Shown here: one piece after another, positions 12,922-38,823 of the stretch | Layout of the letters: each line of letters opens with the position of its first letter | Numbering within the stretch: position 1 is the first letter of the stretch | Virus record (IMG/VR): IMGVR_UViG_3300032236_000718 | Span: 32,001 to 96,000 of that record | From: a virus | Length of the DNA stretch: 64,000 nucleotides | Reading direction: 5' to 3' (one strand) | Translations under genes and position numbers: made by a program | The notes under the pieces: model-generated | The model's input: the letters and a program-made list of their open reading frames with translations, nothing else | Told to the model about the DNA's origin: nothing | Database searches by the model: none

Positions 12922-12948
12922 GTCCACTTCTGGACCTAATTTTTTTTT
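12916..12948 (+). terminator. Intrinsic terminator-like hairpin of TAGGTCCA family
   Basis: AATTAGGTCCA-CTTC-TGGACCTAATT followed by T run. Confidence 0.8.
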
Positions 12949-13017
12949 GCACACCAGCGCATTTTTTTATGTACATTATCCCATTCTTATCGTACTGTAA
13001 GAATATAAGCTAACCAA

Positions 13018-14054: not shown

Positions 14055-14082
14055 ATAGGTCCATTGTGGACCTATTTTTTTT
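14055..14082 (+). terminator. Intrinsic terminator-like hairpin of TAGGTCCA family
   Basis: ATAGGTCCA-TTG-TGGACCTAT followed by T run. Confidence 0.8.
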
Positions 14083-30910: not shown

Positions 30911-30933
30911 GGGGAGCTTCGGCTCCCCTTTTT
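30911..30933 (+). terminator. Rho-independent terminator with UUCG loop
   Basis: GGGGAGC-TTCG-GCTCCCC-TTTTT. Confidence 0.92.
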
Positions 30934-33622
30934 ATTTCTGTAGTCCTGCGGACTCTTTTAGTCTATAAGCTAATGGGTAGTCCTTACCAGGGACAAATGC
31001 TATAGTGTCTGTGTCAGCCTTAGCTCCACTAGAATTCTGTAGAATTATAGGAAGAGCTGTATTCTTCTTACTCTGTTCATATGCTGCTGTCACTGCTGCG
31101 GCATTGCCCATGATGTTACCATCATTCTTATTAGAAGTTACTAGAGTAGAAGACTTATTACCGATATTATAGATGCTCTGGGCATAATTCGGATCAGTTG
31201 CATATCCGGCCGCGGCTATAGCTGTTGCAGCCTCAGCAAACGACTTGGCATTTAATACACCAGCGTATCTATTATTCTTAGTGATAAAGTCTACATATCC
31301 CTCGGCTGACTCCTCGAGACTATTATATGCAGCAAAGCTTTGTGACATGCTCGTGTAGCCGCCACCCGAGAACTCACTGGTCATTGCTGAGACACTTCCT
31401 GCGGTGCCCTGACCCTTTATTCCAAAGGCATTGTTGCCCACCATATGTCGACCATACCCAGTCTCCTGCGCGCTCTGTGCGGCGCCAAGCTGTGCTATGA
31501 TCTCAGGATTTGGTAGACCCTTAGCTTTTGCAGCAGCCAGCACTGAGTTATACATTTTATTGTACCACTCACCCTGGCTTCCATTAAATGGTGTGCTCTT
31601 GACATTTGTGTCCAGTGTTGGGTTACCATAACTTGCTCCCACGGACCCGCCCGTGAGGCCAGATAAATTACTAGACCCTGACATGTTTAGACTACTAGAT
31701 ATACCAGAGAATGGGTTACTAAATGAAGCAGTTGCTCCACCCGAGACTACACCTTCACTACTAGAGCCAACAACAGAAGTCTTCTCAGAGCTTCCCTCAC
31801 CATAGTCGAATATGAATGACTTAGCGTTGAACTCAATATTTTTAGCATTAAAGTTCAGGCTTGTTAGTCTCTCGCTCTCACTAGCAGACAGTGGTATTAT
31901 AAGTTCACGACCATGTAGAGTGACAGGGTATCCTTCCTCAGGACCATCAGATATACCACCGTCTCTGAAACCTTTAGTTATAGTATCGAGTAAAGTTCCT
32001 TCACCACTAAAGTCTGGTAAAAAGCTTCTAATGTCTTCTAGTAGACGCTGACCAGAAGTTTTATTTAAACGTTCTTTTAGTTGTGCAGCTCTCTCTTTGT
32101 TTATCTTATCATCTAGCGCGTTATTGTATATAAAGTCACGCATGTCGTTATAGTAGACATTTGTTTGACCTTTACTTGCTGCGCTAGCTCGTCTAAGCTT
32201 CTTAGCCTCGTCTGACTTTTCCCATTCCTCGACGGCCTTATAACCTTTATTTGCTTTATCAAATGATTGTCTAGCCAGAGTCTTAAACTCTTCAAACTCT
32301 TTTAAGAAATATTCCTTGAATATCTCTATCTTTGTATCATAGTCGGGATCTGTTAAAGGATCTGTTCCTCCGAACATATCCATATAGATCTCTCTAGCAG
32401 CTTCTCCAGCATCGATCGCTAGTGAGGCAAGTGTTCCTATGTAAGGCAACACTGCTGCACCTCCACTAATAACGTTAGCAAAAAATCCAGTAAAATCCCA
32501 TTTATTAAGTCGCTCTAGACCAAAAGCTACTCCAAATAATGCACCAATTCCAATAGGCATAGCAAGACTGGCTGCTTTAGCAACTTGTTTTTTAACTAAA
32601 ATAGTTAAAAGTGTCTTATCTAGTTTGGCCATGACTTCTTGTCTGGATTTTGCCTGTAATACTCTCTCTACAGTTTGTCTAGATAAGAATGCACCTTTTT
32701 TAGTGCTAGTCACACCAATATCTTTTAGTGCAGCTTCTTGCTCAGCAGTAATTCCACCCTTAACAACCCAACCACCACCAGTAGTATGCTCGATTGCACC
32801 AGATGCTATAAGCTCGGATGTAACTACTGGCTTACCTATAATCTTCTCTGCATCAGCTAGTGTCTGCTTAGCTCCATTTAACTTACGAGAAAGTCTTAGC
32901 GCCTCTGCCTTTGAAGCAGTCTCTTCTGCTACAGTGTCGAGTGCTCTCTGCTCTGATCTTGCTATGCGGGCTTCTCTTTTTGCTTCCTCAGCGCGTGCTC
33001 TCTCCTCGACAGCTTTAGTGATTCTAGTCTGAGCTTGTCTCTCTTCTTTTGCAGCTTGTCGAGATTCTTTGCCTGCAGCTTCTGCTTCAGCTCTTGACTT
33101 TTGTGCATCAGCGATCGCCTTCTCTGCATCAATCTCTGCCTTAGCTGCTTTAGCCTCTGCCTTTGAAGCATCACGCTCTGCCTTGAGAGCCTTTGACTCG
33201 GCTTCACTCTTGATAGATTTAGCCTCTGCCTCTATTCTTCTCTCTGTCTCTTTTAAAATCTTCTTAGCAGCATTCTCTTCTGCTCTCTGCTCTGCCATCT
33301 TAGCTAATTTATCACGTAACTTCTTCCCAAGCAAGTTTAGTAATGAGTCATCTCCACCTGCTTCCTCTCTTACACCATTTTGAAGTATGTTAACAGCCAT
33401 AGACTGCTTACTAACTATAACACGAAGAGTCTCATTCATGATTCTAAATGCAGCACCGTATTCTTGAGCACGGTTGTCCGCTCTAGCTATAGTTCTTCTG
33501 CTTTCTTGGAATGCTTGGTTATACTTCTCATTAACAGTATTCAGAGCTGCATCTAGTGAGCTTAGTGCGGTGCTCACGTCACTTAATGACTCATTCTCTG
33601 ACTGTGTTTTTAAATTATCCAT
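30932..33622 (-). CDS. Tape-measure-like/tail core protein with C-terminal GH73 (FlgJ-like) glucosaminidase
   Basis: Long Ala/Lys/Glu coiled coil, TM-like segment, GGISDGP..GY..LHGRE motif, AQSAQETGYG, NNAFGIKG, GYATDPNYA. Confidence 0.8.
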   Translation of the reverse strand: MDNLKTQSENESLSDVSTALSSLDAALNTVNEKYNQAFQESRRTIARADNRAQEYGAAFRIMNETLRVIVSKQSMAVNILQNGVREEAGGDDSLLNLLGKKLRDKLAKMAEQRAEENAAKKILKETERRIEAEAKSIKSEAESKALKAERDASKAEAKAAKAEIDAEKAIADAQKSRAEAEAAGKESRQAAKEERQAQTRITKAVEERARAEEAKREARIARSEQRALDTVAEETASKAEALRLSRKLNGAKQTLADAEKIIGKPVVTSELIASGAIEHTTGGGWVVKGGITAEQEAALKDIGVTSTKKGAFLSRQTVERVLQAKSRQEVMAKLDKTLLTILVKKQVAKAASLAMPIGIGALFGVAFGLERLNKWDFTGFFANVISGGAAVLPYIGTLASLAIDAGEAAREIYMDMFGGTDPLTDPDYDTKIEIFKEYFLKEFEEFKTLARQSFDKANKGYKAVEEWEKSDEAKKLRRASAASKGQTNVYYNDMRDFIYNNALDDKINKERAAQLKERLNKTSGQRLLEDIRSFLPDFSGEGTLLDTITKGFRDGGISDGPEEGYPVTLHGRELIIPLSASESERLTSLNFNAKNIEFNAKSFIFDYGEGSSEKTSVVGSSSEGVVSGGATASFSNPFSGISSSLNMSGSSNLSGLTGGSVGASYGNPTLDTNVKSTPFNGSQGEWYNKMYNSVLAAAKAKGLPNPEIIAQLGAAQSAQETGYGRHMVGNNAFGIKGQGTAGSVSAMTSEFSGGGYTSMSQSFAAYNSLEESAEGYVDFITKNNRYAGVLNAKSFAEAATAIAAAGYATDPNYAQSIYNIGNKSSTLVTSNKNDGNIMGNAAAVTAAYEQSKKNTALPIILQNSSGAKADTDTIAFVPGKDYPLAYRLKESAGLQK

Positions 33623-35616
33623 TATCTTACTTCATCATGATTAGAATATGAGAGATTTATTGCAGGTCCAAATAATTCTTTGTATAATATGTGGGCATCG
33701 TCGGGCTCAACATTTCCTGCTATGTTAGGATTCTTTAACTTTGCAGGAATAGCTGCCTGATAGTTTGGATCTGGAGGAGAAGAAGTAGCAGATACTATAG
33801 TAGGAACAGGAGCAGAACTAGGAGCGCTGACACTCATACTTGATGAAGACACTGTCGACAGAGTAGATCCTTTTGTCGGGGCACTCATGACAAAACTACC
33901 AGAAGAGGTAGATGGAGCTTCTGCAGGAGGTGACATACTAGATCCCGATGGGATAAACATGTCCCCAGATCCACCCTCTCTAGGCATAGCAGAGAAGTGC
34001 ATAGGATCTTTATTGCTATTCCATAACATTCCCCAACCAAGGCCAAAAGATCGTGCTACCATTCCTATTGTACTAGGAAGTGTAGTCTTTGTAGATCCGT
34101 TTGGATTCTCTGATGGATTAATATCGAGAGCTGCCCCGTACGCGTGGGCACTTACTTTAGTACCATCATTTACATTCATTCTGGCTTCGTAGCCACCTAG
34201 TGCCTTGATATAACCAGGGTTATATTGATCTAGATAGTCTACAAGTCCTTGGAATCTGTCTTTGTACTGAGCTGCTACCTTTGCAGATGCTCCAGTCTTT
34301 GACTTTACAGTCGCTAATTCTGGCGGAGGGGGCATAAAGTTGCCTAGTCCACCGCCTCCATTGTTACCACCAGTACTAGAACCGGGTAGTGTTTTATTAC
34401 CGCCATAACCTTGATTATCACTCTCAGTTACGCCAGTCTGCTTAAACAGCATTCCATCAGCATTAAAAGTTATTCTATCCGCGTTGATATCGACATTTTT
34501 ATCACCGGCAGTATCTTCACGCTTACCGAGTTTTTTAAGTTCTGGATTTATAACATTAGCATCATTATCACTTTTAATCTGGAACTTAGGAGTTAGTTCT
34601 CCCTCTTGAGCTACATAGTCGGCTGACCTTACTGCAAAGTCCTTCACACCATACTTTTGTGCTACACTAGTCTTATAAGTGTTTAGATTCTCTCCAAGAT
34701 CACCGGCTTTTGCCTGCTGCTCGGATGTCATATTGTTATATGCACTTATCATATTAGCAGAGCCAGCCTCGAACTCACGAGTGGCTGCCATAGTTCTCTC
34801 AGATAAATTACTTCCTGTGTCTGATACTGTTTGTATAGATGGATTTACCTTAGTAGCATCAGCAGTCTGTATAGGTAAAACAATTTCAGGAGTTATCGAG
34901 TCATTCGCACTAATATTTTCTTCTGGAGCAGGAGGAGCTGGTGTTAAATTCTCTGATACTGGAATCGGCTTCTCTTTAGTGTCTCCTGATAACCACTTTA
35001 GTGCATATGGAATTGCCTCGGCTGCACCTACACCTAGTATTCCACCAAGTAGACCTCCGACTAAACTCTTACCTAATCCTCCACCCTGACTACCTACACC
35101 TCCCTTTGAGATGATTTGCCCGAGAAGACCAAGCATCTTGGTCATCTCTAGGTTTAGCTGCATTAGTAAATTATTAGTCTCGTTTAGCTGCTCAGACACA
35201 TACTGCATGTTTGTGTCTAAGTTTTGGCTAGTCTTTCTATTCTCGTCTTCTTCGTCCTTTAATTCCTGTAAAAATACAGATAGTTTTGGAAACATCGCGG
35301 CAAAAAGATTACGACCAAACTTTCTAGCAGCTCTACCGAATATACCTCTTTTCTTTGGCGTTTTTGGCTCATCGCCTCCAGAAGTATCAGATACTTTCTC
35401 GGCGTCTACTGCATCTTCAACTTCAGGTGGCTTCGGAAGCTTCTTATTAGCCTTAGTCTCTTGAGCCTCGGCTTGTTGCATAGACAGTTGCTCCCTGATA
35501 GTATCGGCCATCTTGCCGCCTATCTTGGTATTCAACTCGTCTATTACGTCACCTTCTTCATTTAAGGTGTATTTACGTCCTAGCCAGTTAACAACATTTT
35601 GATTTTTACTGGCCAT
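33622..35616 (-). CDS. Tail-associated protein with M15-family peptidoglycan peptidase
   Basis: GGYEAR...SAHAYGAALDINP...WG..W..KDPMHFS. Confidence 0.8.
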   Translation of the reverse strand: MASKNQNVVNWLGRKYTLNEEGDVIDELNTKIGGKMADTIREQLSMQQAEAQETKANKKLPKPPEVEDAVDAEKVSDTSGGDEPKTPKKRGIFGRAARKFGRNLFAAMFPKLSVFLQELKDEEDENRKTSQNLDTNMQYVSEQLNETNNLLMQLNLEMTKMLGLLGQIISKGGVGSQGGGLGKSLVGGLLGGILGVGAAEAIPYALKWLSGDTKEKPIPVSENLTPAPPAPEENISANDSITPEIVLPIQTADATKVNPSIQTVSDTGSNLSERTMAATREFEAGSANMISAYNNMTSEQQAKAGDLGENLNTYKTSVAQKYGVKDFAVRSADYVAQEGELTPKFQIKSDNDANVINPELKKLGKREDTAGDKNVDINADRITFNADGMLFKQTGVTESDNQGYGGNKTLPGSSTGGNNGGGGLGNFMPPPPELATVKSKTGASAKVAAQYKDRFQGLVDYLDQYNPGYIKALGGYEARMNVNDGTKVSAHAYGAALDINPSENPNGSTKTTLPSTIGMVARSFGLGWGMLWNSNKDPMHFSAMPREGGSGDMFIPSGSSMSPPAEAPSTSSGSFVMSAPTKGSTLSTVSSSSMSVSAPSSAPVPTIVSATSSPPDPNYQAAIPAKLKNPNIAGNVEPDDAHILYKELFGPAINLSYSNHDEVR

Positions 35617-36112
35617 TTATCTTAGCTAACTTTTCCTGTCCACGCATGAAGCTTGTGACACCAAGAATTGCGCCGAACGCCAAGTGTATTAAACCACCGT
35701 TAGATAAGGTTAAGCTCTGCCATGGAGTATAGGTAAATTGTACACCTAGTCCCTTAAATATTACTGGCAAGAACATGGTGATTAATGGGAATCCTATAAA
35801 GTCCATAAAGCATATTCCCATATAGAGCCATCCCATTGCTGGACGCCAGTATGCTTTTACCCAATGCTCTTCTTCTTTCTCTAGTTGCTGCTCGACAATC
35901 TCTTTGTCGATAGATGTCTGTGCTAGACCCACTGACGCTTGCGCCTGTGCAGTAGCTTGAACAGAAGCCATCTGGACTGTCTGCTGAGCCATATTAGAAG
36001 AATTCTGGTTATTATTGTTATTCACATCAATTACTGTAACTGCTGGAGCAGGTGCGGGTGCAACTGGTGCAGGATCAGTATTTTGATCATCTGGTTTTGC
36101 AAATTTAGCCAT
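35606..36112 (-). CDS. 3-TM holin-like membrane protein (GTA-holin family)
   Basis: WRPAMGWLYMGICFMDFIGFP, HLAFGAILGV..F.RGQEK. Confidence 0.7.
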   Translation of the reverse strand: MAKFAKPDDQNTDPAPVAPAPAPAVTVIDVNNNNNQNSSNMAQQTVQMASVQATAQAQASVGLAQTSIDKEIVEQQLEKEEEHWVKAYWRPAMGWLYMGICFMDFIGFPLITMFLPVIFKGLGVQFTYTPWQSLTLSNGGLIHLAFGAILGVTSFMRGQEKLAKINGQ

Positions 36113-36290
36113 TCGCGTGTTTCCTCTGTTCTTCGACCTCTTTCAGGTGTCGCATTATCATCTCTACGTAGAGGTCACGCTCAAATGGTATAAGATTCTC
36201 TACTTCAGTCATTGTGTATTTATGGTGCTGAGCCAACGAGAATACAGTGGTATAGTAGTTCTCTAAGTTGTTGTGGTTCAGCGCAGCGTA
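36105..36290 (-). CDS. 51: gp51-like baseplate hub assembly chaperone (not in ORF track; probably reached by -1 frameshift from gp26)
   Basis: YAALNHNNLENYYTTVFSLAQHHKYTMTEVENLIPFERDLYVEMIMRHLKEVEEQRKHANG; frame opens only at the T7 run. Confidence 0.8.
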   Translation of the reverse strand, partial: YAALNHNNLENYYTTVFSLAQHHKYTMTEVENLIPFERDLYVEMIMRHLKEVEEQRKHANG

Positions 36291-36982
36291 AAAAAATCAG
36301 ATAACGTTGTCAGTTCAATCTCTCGGTCATTTCCAAGGGAGTTCTTATATTTAATTACGTATGATAATTTTGGCTGATTTGCCATAAATTCTCTGACCTG
36401 CTCAAAGGTCTTGATGTCAAGATCCTCTAGATAATCTGCAATTTCTTGTAGAGTATATTGTGAGCAGTCATAGATCTCGTCACCGTCATAGATCTTGTCG
36501 ACACATCTAACAATTAATTGGAAGAATGCCTCATTTCCTGAATTTAGGAATTCCTTGTCATCATATAGAGTGACCTTAGGATACTTTAATTGTATACCGG
36601 CAGTCTTAGTGATTTTAATGACATTCTTAACATTCTCTGGAAATATCACCTCGACCTTCTTTAGGTCTATATCAAAGTCATAAATCTTATCGTCTTCTTT
36701 ATCCTTATAGGATACGCTTACAGTATCATTGACTGAGTTTGCTCTAATCTGAATAAAAAGATACTCCAAGTCAAACAGTGATAGAGAGTTTACGTCAAAC
36801 TCGTCCATGCAGCAGTTATTAACGATTTGCTTTATTGCTTGTAAGATATCACCCTCGTCTTCACTATCCTTGGCCATAAGGAGTAGCTTCTCTTCTTTAA
36901 CAAGGAATGGTCTAAACGTCAATTTCTGCTTTGAGCTTGGTACAACAAGTTGAAATTGGGGGTGCATAGTCTTAGGTAACAT
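36278..36982 (-). CDS. 26: Baseplate hub assembly protein gp26
   Basis: MLPK...PSSKQKLTFRPFLVKEEKLLL, FDLEYLFIQIRANSV, LSDFF; start after GGAG. Confidence 0.9.
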   Translation of the reverse strand: MLPKTMHPQFQLVVPSSKQKLTFRPFLVKEEKLLLMAKDSEDEGDILQAIKQIVNNCCMDEFDVNSLSLFDLEYLFIQIRANSVNDTVSVSYKDKEDDKIYDFDIDLKKVEVIFPENVKNVIKITKTAGIQLKYPKVTLYDDKEFLNSGNEAFFQLIVRCVDKIYDGDEIYDCSQYTLQEIADYLEDLDIKTFEQVREFMANQPKLSYVIKYKNSLGNDREIELTTLSDFFTLR

Positions 36983-37008: not shown

Positions 37009-37728
37009 TTATCTTAATATCCAATTCTGTATAGCATCGCCGACAACATATGCGGCACTAGTAGGATTCTGAGCTACTCTCAGTAGAGTATCTAGTGTTA
37101 TCATACCACCTCCACCGGTGATATTAGCAGAATCAACTTTCCAATTCTTAAATGTAAACCCAACTGTAATTTTCATTAGTGAGTTTTGATTGCCCCAATC
37201 GAGACTTATATCATTCAGCGCATTAGGATAAGCATCATATAGTGTGACTTGTTTTGATAGAAAACCCTCTTGGTCAAAGACAAAAATATCTATGTCTGTC
37301 ACATAATTATCTTTATACTCTGCAGTGAAAACTGGATTTCTGAGATTTGTAGTAGTTCCTGCAAAGTCTATGATAGATGTCATCCATATATACATGTAGC
37401 GATATATAGAACTATTCTTATCAGCTATAAATGTTATGCTAGTGTCATTAAACTGTGCATTGTGAGGCATTTTCTCATTTACGCCAAGACCATATCTTCT
37501 CACATCATTTGTTTGTAAAACTAGACCTGGTATTCTTACCTGCTCTGCTCTAAACTGCATGAGTCTGCTTAAGCCAGTAGTGTCGATACCATCGCCGTTA
37601 AGTTCTGCTGTGTTTTGTAGAGTTCCCATCAGTACTCCAGAAGGTGGCATCATAACATAGAACTTACTATTAGGAAGTACTCCGTAGGCTCCTATATTAG
37701 AGCTAAAAGATGATATGTTAAATGCCAT
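37009..37728 (-). CDS. 54: Baseplate tail-tube initiator gp54-like
   Basis: Tube-fold motifs (VRIPG, TLYDAYP, ITVGFTFKNW); synteny with genes 2 and 4. Confidence 0.7.
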   Translation of the reverse strand: MAFNISSFSSNIGAYGVLPNSKFYVMMPPSGVLMGTLQNTAELNGDGIDTTGLSRLMQFRAEQVRIPGLVLQTNDVRRYGLGVNEKMPHNAQFNDTSITFIADKNSSIYRYMYIWMTSIIDFAGTTTNLRNPVFTAEYKDNYVTDIDIFVFDQEGFLSKQVTLYDAYPNALNDISLDWGNQNSLMKITVGFTFKNWKVDSANITGGGGMITLDTLLRVAQNPTSAAYVVGDAIQNWILR

Positions 37729-38333
37729 TATCTTACCTTACTGAGTGAATCTTTATAAACTGTAGCTGCAGTAGCTTTTTTAAATCTCTGCAGTGGTAAC
37801 ATCAATGCAGTATCCCAATTCTTAGGCTGCACATAAAGGTATTTATTGCCTTGTACTTGATCCCACAAATAGTGCTTCAGACATGGGGCAAAATGCTTAA
37901 ACTTAGATGAACTCTGTAAAATCTCATAGGATATTCTTAACTTTGTAGTATCATCATACTTCTTGTTGTTTGCAGTCTGGTATAATGCATCCATTAACTT
38001 AGCCCTTAGCATTGGGGGAAGATAGTGAAGATTAATTCCAAGGAATCCATCGGACTTAAATCCAATTGGGAACACTAATGGAAATGTATCATAGAATGGA
38101 AGACTATCTTTATGCTTAGGATCATAGAAGAACATATACATTTTACCGATAGACTTAATGTCAATCTTATCAACTACATTTTCTTTATCAGTAAAAGCTC
38201 TATTTGGATTTACATTCTGTGAAGAAAGTTTACTAGCAGAGTCCCTATACCAGTCACGAGCATCTTGTGTCTGGTTTGGTGTTATACCAGCATCAGATCC
38301 TGTAGTTGCAATTTGTGTAAAATAACTTGACAT
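37728..38333 (-). CDS. 2: DNA end protector gp2
   Basis: GKMYMFFYDPKHK..LPFYDTFPLV, GINLHYLPP..RAKL, LPLQRF. Confidence 0.93.
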   Translation of the reverse strand: MSSYFTQIATTGSDAGITPNQTQDARDWYRDSASKLSSQNVNPNRAFTDKENVVDKIDIKSIGKMYMFFYDPKHKDSLPFYDTFPLVFPIGFKSDGFLGINLHYLPPMLRAKLMDALYQTANNKKYDDTTKLRISYEILQSSSKFKHFAPCLKHYLWDQVQGNKYLYVQPKNWDTALMLPLQRFKKATAATVYKDSLSKVR

Positions 38334-38776
38334 TAGAAGTTTATGTTCAACTCTCTTTCAGTGAATATATGGAAGCTCCAGTTTCTGTCTTCACAGAATG
38401 CCTTTGCAGCCTCCCACTTAGCATTATTTATTCCCCAAGTATAGACCTCATTTATGTACCTCTTAGTAGCTTTCTTTTGCACTACTGGCGGAACGGTCTG
38501 GGATGATGGCTTGACTTCAATGACTGCAACCTCAATCTTACCATCAGCATTCTTCTTCTTAACATAAAAGTCAGGAAAATATCTATGTATCCTCCCGTCC
38601 ACGGGAGACCTATAGGGTATACAAAATTCCTCAGATGACCATTGAATGATGTCTTTATGACTATCTAAGTACATCATTAGTTTAAGTTCCCAGCTGGATC
38701 TATAGATGATATTAGCTGGATCGCCCTTATACTTTTCTGGGTGTTTAGGCTTAAAGTATCCCTTGTGTGTCTTCAT
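38333..38776 (-). CDS. 4: Head completion nuclease gp4
   Basis: PKHPEKYKGD, IYRSSWE, WSSEE, HRYFPDF, IEVKP, NNAKWEAA; start at MKTHKG. Confidence 0.93.
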   Translation of the reverse strand: MKTHKGYFKPKHPEKYKGDPANIIYRSSWELKLMMYLDSHKDIIQWSSEEFCIPYRSPVDGRIHRYFPDFYVKKKNADGKIEVAVIEVKPSSQTVPPVVQKKATKRYINEVYTWGINNAKWEAAKAFCEDRNWSFHIFTERELNINF

Positions 38777-38794
38777 AAGATTGACCAATTTGCC

Positions 38795-38823
38795 TATAAA
38801 TAAACTATCAAACACTATTTATA
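38795..38823. promoter_or_regulatory. Face-to-face late promoters (TATAAATA + strand 38795; - strand 38816-38823)
   Basis: Exact consensus on each strand between divergent genes 4 and 48. Confidence 0.85.

Follow-up and report, generated by a model that had tools for sequence, protein, structure and literature searches.

A gp26-like, probable tail assembly chaperone gene with a conserved slippery heptamer and a predicted -1 frameshift into a gp51-like extension in a distant T4-like phage

The window, that is, the whole 64-kb stretch of DNA (64,000 nucleotides) analyzed here, comprises bases 32001-96000 of an IMG/VR virus record of 164,428 bp that is 99% complete. The uncultured virus is a distant T4-like phage without a close isolate; the best blastn match of the region, and the only one found, covers 95 bases at 74% identity in S-CAM8 cyanophage records. 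The features in the following list are all located on the minus strand and are given in the 5′ to 3′ direction of that strand.

38333-38815, minus strand: head-closure gp4-like gene
37728-38333, minus strand: DNA end protector gp2-like gene
37009-37728, minus strand: tail tube-like gene, directly upstream of gp26 (Pfam Phage_TTP_2, E 2.7e-9; PHROG 45 'tail tube', E 2.1e-32)
36278-36982, minus strand: gp26-like gene encoding the short (TAC-N) product, 234 aa
36290-36296, minus strand: slippery heptamer U UUU UUU, in phase with the gp26 codons GAU UUU UUU (D229 F230 F231)
36227-36282, minus strand: candidate frameshift-stimulating stem-loop, two helices, 16 pairs, 7 nt past the heptamer
36105-36290, minus strand: gp51-like -1 frame (TAC-C), 61 codons plus TAA
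35606-36112, minus strand: 3TM holin-like protein, 168 aa, with three predicted membrane segments (Pfam GTA_holin_3TM, E 4e-7; PHROG 3427 'holin')
33622-35616, minus strand: 664-aa protein with a Gly-rich hydrophobic segment and a Peptidase_M15_4 domain (Pfam PF13539, E 4e-11)
30932-33622, minus strand: 896-aa protein with a Lys/Ala/Glu-rich N-terminal half and a glucosaminidase domain (Pfam PF01832, E 1.7e-20)

The gp26-like gene starts with an ATG at 36982, which is preceded by GGAG, and ends with a TGA at 36278-36280. Its product matches the Pfam family PF12322 (T4_baseplate) over residues 8-231 (E 2.7e-54, 184.6 bits against a cut-off of 24.5) and PHROG 150 'baseplate hub' (E 2.8e-57). On the minus strand, the 3′ end of the gene reads TTA TCT GAT TTT TTT ACG CTG CGC TGA. 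The -1 frame is closed upstream by a TGA (36297-36299) located immediately before TTT TTT; past the heptamer, it reads TAC GCT GCG CTG AAC and continues through a total of 61 sense codons to a TAA at 36105-36107. The extension encoded in this frame matches PHROG 634 'baseplate hub assembly catalyst' (E 1e-22), and a tblastn search with the extension matched 553 phage records, with the alignments beginning at residue 2-3. The predicted fusion, composed of gp26 residues 1-231 and the extension, would be a protein of 292 aa (~33 kDa) with the junction ...LSDFF-YAALNHNN..., the predicted junction peptide ...LSDFF followed by YAALNHNNLENYY, and the junction-spanning tryptic peptide EIELTTLSDFFYAALNHNNLENYYTTVFSLAQHHK. 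The first TTG of the -1 frame in the window is codon 20 and the first ATG is codon 28; both fall downstream of the conserved LENYY segment and lack a GGAG-like motif in front of them. The sequence-only reading, which had predicted a -1 frameshift from gp26 into gp51 at the T7 run, proves to be accurate when the sequence is read directly, with regard to the gp26 3′ end, the position of the run, the remaining coordinates, the junction peptide, the TGA that closes the -1 frame, the 61 gp51-like codons and the position of LENYY upstream of the first TTG and ATG.

The immediate neighbors of gp26 are the tube-like gene directly upstream and, past the gp51 frame, the 3TM protein, which separates gp26/gp51 from the 664-aa and 896-aa proteins. 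The V-G-T-H gene order of lambda would correspond here to the tube gene, gp26, gp51 and the large lytic-domain proteins. The same reading had placed the gp26/gp51 pair upstream of tape-measure-like genes; the order of the tube gene, gp26 and gp51 holds, whereas the 664-aa and 896-aa proteins are candidates for tape-measure-like proteins by position, size and composition alone. BLASTP comparison of these two proteins with T4 gp29 detected no similarity, and neither did BLASTP comparison of the large downstream proteins with the tape measure protein of Cr30. The 896-aa protein matches PHROG 326 'tail protein with endopeptidase domain' and its N-terminal half is probably helical. Three side observations pertain to this part of the locus. 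The ATG of the holin-like gene overlaps the stop codon of the gp51 frame (ATGGCTAA); a holin-like protein lodged between a chaperone and large lytic-domain proteins is unusual inside a tail module; and the 664-aa and 896-aa proteins are encoded consecutively, each with a cell-wall hydrolase domain behind a low-complexity region.

The conservation of the junction was assessed in 154 loci with usable junctions, which collapse to 110 distinct junction sequences. The sample includes 62 IMG/VR relatives of the window gp26 (44-96% identity), 80 relatives of the S-PM2 gp26 and 7 Aeh1-type loci, along with the isolates Sinorhizobium phiM7, Caulobacter Cr30, Vibrio D479 and D486, Acidovorax ACP17, Aeromonas Aeh1 and Synechococcus S-PM2, so that the 110 junctions span the clade of the window phage, cyanophages, Aeh1-like and KVP40-like phages, Cr30, phiM7 and ACP17. 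When the KVP40-like gp26 was used as the query in IMG/VR with the pattern method, no relatives were found. The alignment of gp26 3′ ends, the check that had been proposed for the predicted frameshift, yields a very clean pattern: an in-phase T TTT TTY on two Phe codons near the gp26 C-terminus is present in all 110 distinct junctions, as TTTTTTC in 64 and TTTTTTT in 46, and in every one of the 110 a gp51-like peptide follows in the -1 frame. The 0 frame terminates 1-3 codons past the slip site in the clade of the window phage and 1-2 codons past it in the other clades sampled.

T7-type runs as such are not unusual in the 64-kb window, with 4 sites compared to 10 +/- 4 expected by chance; it is the conserved position and phase of the run, rather than the run itself, that exceed chance. 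(The other T7-T9 runs of the window are limited to the plus strand, at 12940-12968 and 14075-14082.) Furthermore, the conservation extends to synonymous positions. The codon that precedes the Phe pair ends in T in 110 of the 110 junctions (GAT in 53, TCT in 26, AGT in 17, AAT in 12 and GCT in 2) while the encoded amino acid varies between D, S, N and A, for which the background shares of T-ending codons in the same genes are 0.79, 0.54, 0.69 and 0.38, respectively. The first Phe codon is invariably TTT (110/110, against a background of 0.69), and the second one is free (TTT 46, TTC 64). The FF motif is also kept by T4 gp26, which has no need of a shift, so that a part of the T-run reflects a protein-level constraint; the constraint at the synonymous sites of the heptamer, however, goes beyond what conservation of 'FF' in the protein alone can account for. 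Given that only the Z position is free, the site conforms to the X XXY YYZ pattern required for tandem tRNA slippage.

These comparative data also bear on the prospect that the locus is an artefact or a broken gene, with T7 being a homopolymer sequencing error or the product of a recent frameshift mutation in a continuous gp51-type gene. Homopolymers are indeed error-prone, and continuous T4-type gp51 genes are found in 1375 phage records. Nevertheless, the same GATTTTTTT and frame arrangement are present in 60 of the 61 readable related metagenomic contigs (44-96% gp26 identity), the single exception being GATTTTTTC, where the contig ends right after. In total, the same run, phase and short 0-frame tail recur in 154 loci from independent metagenomes and from isolates of several phage families, and the 0-frame stop 1-3 codons past the slip site is itself conserved. 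A sequencing error or a broken gene, the former of which the sequence-only reading had named as a possible refutation, is refuted by the comparative data on the 154 loci, and we assign this explanation virtually no probability.

The databases annotate gp51 as a separate protein, and the second explanation to be considered is that gp51 is indeed a separate small protein, produced either from a start of its own or by termination-reinitiation at a CTG, TTG or ATG that overlaps the TGA of gp26, such that no fusion is made. Some clades, for example those of S-PM2, phiM7, Cr30 and D486, do have an ATG, GTG or TTG within codons 3-5 of their -1 ORF that overlaps the gp26 stop, as would be expected under this scheme. 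However, a start codon in this overlapping position (NTGA) is not conserved: the corresponding codon is CTG in the window, and TTA or CTA in the loci with a TAA stop. In the clade of the window phage, conservation of the peptide FFY-x-x-L-[SNT]-H-N-x-L-x-N-Y-Y sets in at the heptamer, and a start before codon 28-45 is missing from many loci, the first ATG, GTG or TTG of the -1 ORF being codon 28 (loci L002 and L003), 34 (L043 and L059) or 45 (L008 and L054); locus L036 has none in all 63 codons of its -1 ORF. Outside of this clade, the -1 ORFs of D479, Aeh1 and ACP17 lack a usable start. In Vibrio phage D479, where TGA TGA directly upstream of the heptamer closes the -1 frame, the protein annotated as 'gp51' runs from the first start codon and is reduced to 30 aa. 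Separate initiation also leaves the synonymous-site constraint on the heptamer unexplained and does not account for T4 gp51 being one polypeptide that is colinear with the fusion (see below). Independent initiation of gp51, which had been raised as the outcome that would contradict the frameshift, is not tenable given conservation that starts at the heptamer and the startless loci, and we regard the absence of a fusion as very improbable. In the clades with an ATG, an extra free gp51 peptide may be produced beside the fusion.

Downstream of the heptamer, the RNA is predicted to be structured. The 70-nt segment 36216-36285, which begins 5 nt past the heptamer, folds with -14.6 kcal/mol (z -3.58), a value matched by none of 200 shuffles, and the mean z across the clade (42 distinct junctions) is -3.66 compared to -0.43 to +0.16 in four control windows. 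In the cyanophage-type junctions, the mean z is -2.8 (50-nt windows), with control windows at -0.14 to -0.55 (all 110 junctions); the hairpins of these junctions have the same spacing from the heptamer but differ from that of the window in sequence and register. When the two-helix structure of the window is imposed on the clade, 85.5% of the cells are paired, against 32-45% in slid controls, and both partners are substituted in four of the pairs, e.g., C-G in 21 and U-A in 9 sequences, or A-U in 11 and G-C in 11. RNAalifold alone predicted no consensus structure for either the clade of the window phage or the cyanophage-type clade. A segment of 97 nt that includes the heptamer reaches a fold z of only -1.1, the signal having come with the 70-nt segment and the named structure. 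Because the structure was taken from the window sequence, which favors it, and the aligned rows are related, the stable, partly covarying stem-loop downstream of the heptamer is supported, not proven.

The position of this structure is relevant also to the possibility that the recoding is transcriptional, that is, that RNA polymerase adds an extra U on the T-run such that the fusion is translated from some mRNAs without any change of frame. A homopolymer is indeed present (T7 in the clade of the window phage), and the T in the wobble position just ahead of it makes the run longer, a feature that would help either mechanism. The run, however, is only T6 followed by C in 64 of the 110 junctions and in most clades. 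T6 followed by C is short for efficient polymerase slippage. The one free position is exactly the Z of X XXY YYZ whereas polymerase slippage would favor a longer run, and the stable structure 6-8 nt downstream has the spacing usual for ribosomal stimulators. In addition, papers that cite the work on T4-like chaperones discussed below describe the poly-T as a -1 frameshift signal. Taken together, these features argue for ribosomal slippage, and we consider the transcriptional alternative improbable.

T4 itself carries genes 26 and 51 apart from each other and in divergent orientation, so that no fusion is possible and recoding is not needed there. The predicted fusion is limited to T4-like phages outside of the Tevenvirinae, and full-length T4-type gp51 genes, found in 1375 phage records, are all Tevenvirinae-like. 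Both T4 proteins belong to PF12322 (gp26 residues 1-206, E 8.8e-64; gp51 residues 1-201, E 3.9e-52), and accordingly gp51 is a gp26 paralog with a C-terminal extension of ~48 aa. BLASTP of the 61-aa extension from the window against T4 gp51 detected nothing. A profile of 108 extensions, when run against the 65 ORFs of the T4 locus, matched only gp51 (residues 200-245, E 1.4e-7), and a profile of the virtual fusions aligned with T4 gp51 residues 15-246 as a single colinear block that crosses the junction. T4 gp51 (249 aa) has the NYSL..MIPxER motif of the extension, as does the predicted fusion, whereas T4 gp26 (208 aa), which ends two residues past FF, i.e., at the slip site, corresponds to the short product of the window phage. 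It follows from the end of T4 gp26 at the slip site and the colinearity of gp51 with the fusion that gp26 is the short form and gp51 is the long form. Thus, T4 has two genes and the genome of the window phage has one: the 164-kb record, which is 99% complete, contains a single PF12322 match and no further gp51 paralog of full length, so that the long form could be produced only by recoding. A side observation concerns the record MG010123.1, a 32-kb 'Staphylococcus phage SAJK-IND', which encodes a protein 95% identical to T4 gp51 and is probably mislabelled or contaminated with a Tequatrovirus. Both T4 proteins, gp26 and gp51, are listed among the hub assembly chaperones; assembly requires gp51, which the particle does not contain (Leiman et al., 2010, PMC3004832).

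An AlphaFold2 (AF2) model of gp26 built from an alignment of 64 sequences (pLDDT 90.4, pTM 0.85) showed no match in the PDB at E <= 1e-3 in a Foldseek search; the only row with a high probability (0.77, not significant) was the HK97 tail assembly chaperone, 2ob9. In an exhaustive VIA search of 48,161 chains, the best matches, with Z-scores of 7-8 that are middling by the tool's own scale, were 3fgx, an uncharacterised Bacillus protein (Z 7.8, rank 1), 2ob9 (Z 7.3, rank 2, 83 residues, rmsd 3.9) and YqbN, 3klu (Z 6.9, rank 3, 84 residues, rmsd 3.5), which we take to be an XkdN-type prophage tail chaperone; the next rows had Z 5.0 and 4.1. All of these matches fall on model residues 1 to ~90; those to 2ob9 and 3klu cover 83-84 of the 104-119 residues in the two chains, at 7-16% sequence identity to gp26. 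The model thus suggests, with moderate confidence, that the N-terminal domain of gp26 resembles the HK97 tail assembly chaperone and has the TAC fold. Neither the HK97 chaperone nor YqbN has an equivalent of the C-terminal two thirds of gp26; in the model, residues ~85-228 (36296-36730, minus strand) form a separate alpha/beta domain. As an aside, residues 85-228 yield no more than weak matches to the C-terminal peptide-binding domain of Hsp40/DnaJ (Z 3.2-3.9 over ~46-49 residues) that may be due to chance.

On the evidence described above, the gp26-like gene is very probably a tail assembly chaperone gene that would yield two products through ribosomal -1 slippage. Most ribosomes would read GAU UUU UUU ACG CUG CGC UGA through to the 234-aa gp26 (TAC-N). 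Some ribosomes would pause at the stem-loop located 7 nt downstream of the heptamer, the two tRNA-Phe would slip back by one base on U UUU UUU, and translation of 61 codons in the -1 frame would then result in the 292-aa gp26-51 fusion (TAC-NC). If lambda gpG/gpGT and T4 genetics are a guide, tape-measure or hub proteins would be held by the domain common to both forms, and the extension would connect the resulting complex to the growing tail; both chaperone forms would be absent from the virion. We infer the occurrence and the frequency of the slip as well as the binding partners of the two products. To our knowledge, U UUU UUY is not among the most efficient -1 sites in E. coli, which may not be the host of the window phage.

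Xu, Hendrix and Duda are said to have described, in 2004, a conserved -1 frameshift of tail assembly genes, such as gpG/gpGT of lambda and E/E+E' of P2. The locus described here would share with these systems a -1 slip at X XXY YYZ near the end of the upstream ORF and the N-terminus common to both products; in lambda and P2, the chaperone gene is located between the tube and tape-measure genes. The differences are that no sequence similarity to gp26 is detectable, that gp26 (234 aa) is larger than typical TACs, with an extra C-terminal domain (residues ~85-228), and that the heptamer is U UUU UUU rather than G GGA AAG. The proposal of the sequence-only reading that gp26 and gp26-51 are the G/GT equivalents of the T4-like lineage is therefore supported, with the exception of T4 itself, where the two genes are separate and divergent.

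The assignment of gp26 and gp51 as the tail assembly chaperones of T4-like phages predates this analysis (Vladimirov, Gautam and Davidson, Virology 2022, doi 10.1016/j.virol.2021.11.003, as represented in papers that cite it). According to these citing papers, the T4-like phages possess short and long TAC forms (Vladimirov et al., 2022), and the picture that they convey is exactly that of the window phage. In the phage Adele paper, the poly-T sequences at the end of the TAC-N genes of T4-like phages are called 'known -1 frameshift signals', and the PRFect preprint states that, in place of frameshifting, certain T4-like phages have a short gene along with a longer fused one. One record in a phage collection labels a gp51 homolog 'tape measure protein assembly chaperone'. 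The literature covered here yielded no protein-level demonstration of the frameshift for a T4-like phage. The window locus is a further example of a published class, not a discovery, and the new content may be limited to the clade-specific structure of the stimulator and the scale of mis-annotation. With regard to the former, it is conceivable that 36227-36282 is an undescribed, lineage-specific stimulator, that each clade has tuned its short:long ratio, and that the one-gene form is ancestral, the T4 pair having evolved by duplication; we offer this scenario tentatively and would give it somewhat less than even weight.

With regard to the latter, the extension is annotated in D479 (L067, 1594-1686) as a 30-aa 'baseplate hub assembly catalyst' and carries no annotation in ACP17 (L069, 1499-1651) and Aeh1 (L070, 3218-3383). 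Because gp51 is annotated from an arbitrary start, truncated or left out, the long chaperone of ~290 aa is missing from the protein databases. The long form is thus missing for hundreds of genomes of cyanophages, vibriophages and uncultured T4-like phages, and the practical value of the present analysis lies in annotation. More generally, the gp26/gp51 frameshift fills the last apparent exception to the rule of chaperone frameshifting ('all long-tailed phages except T4'), a step that, judging from the papers that cite it, has been in print since 2022. Should the stimulator reading be true, each T4-like clade would have its own ratio of short to long chaperone.
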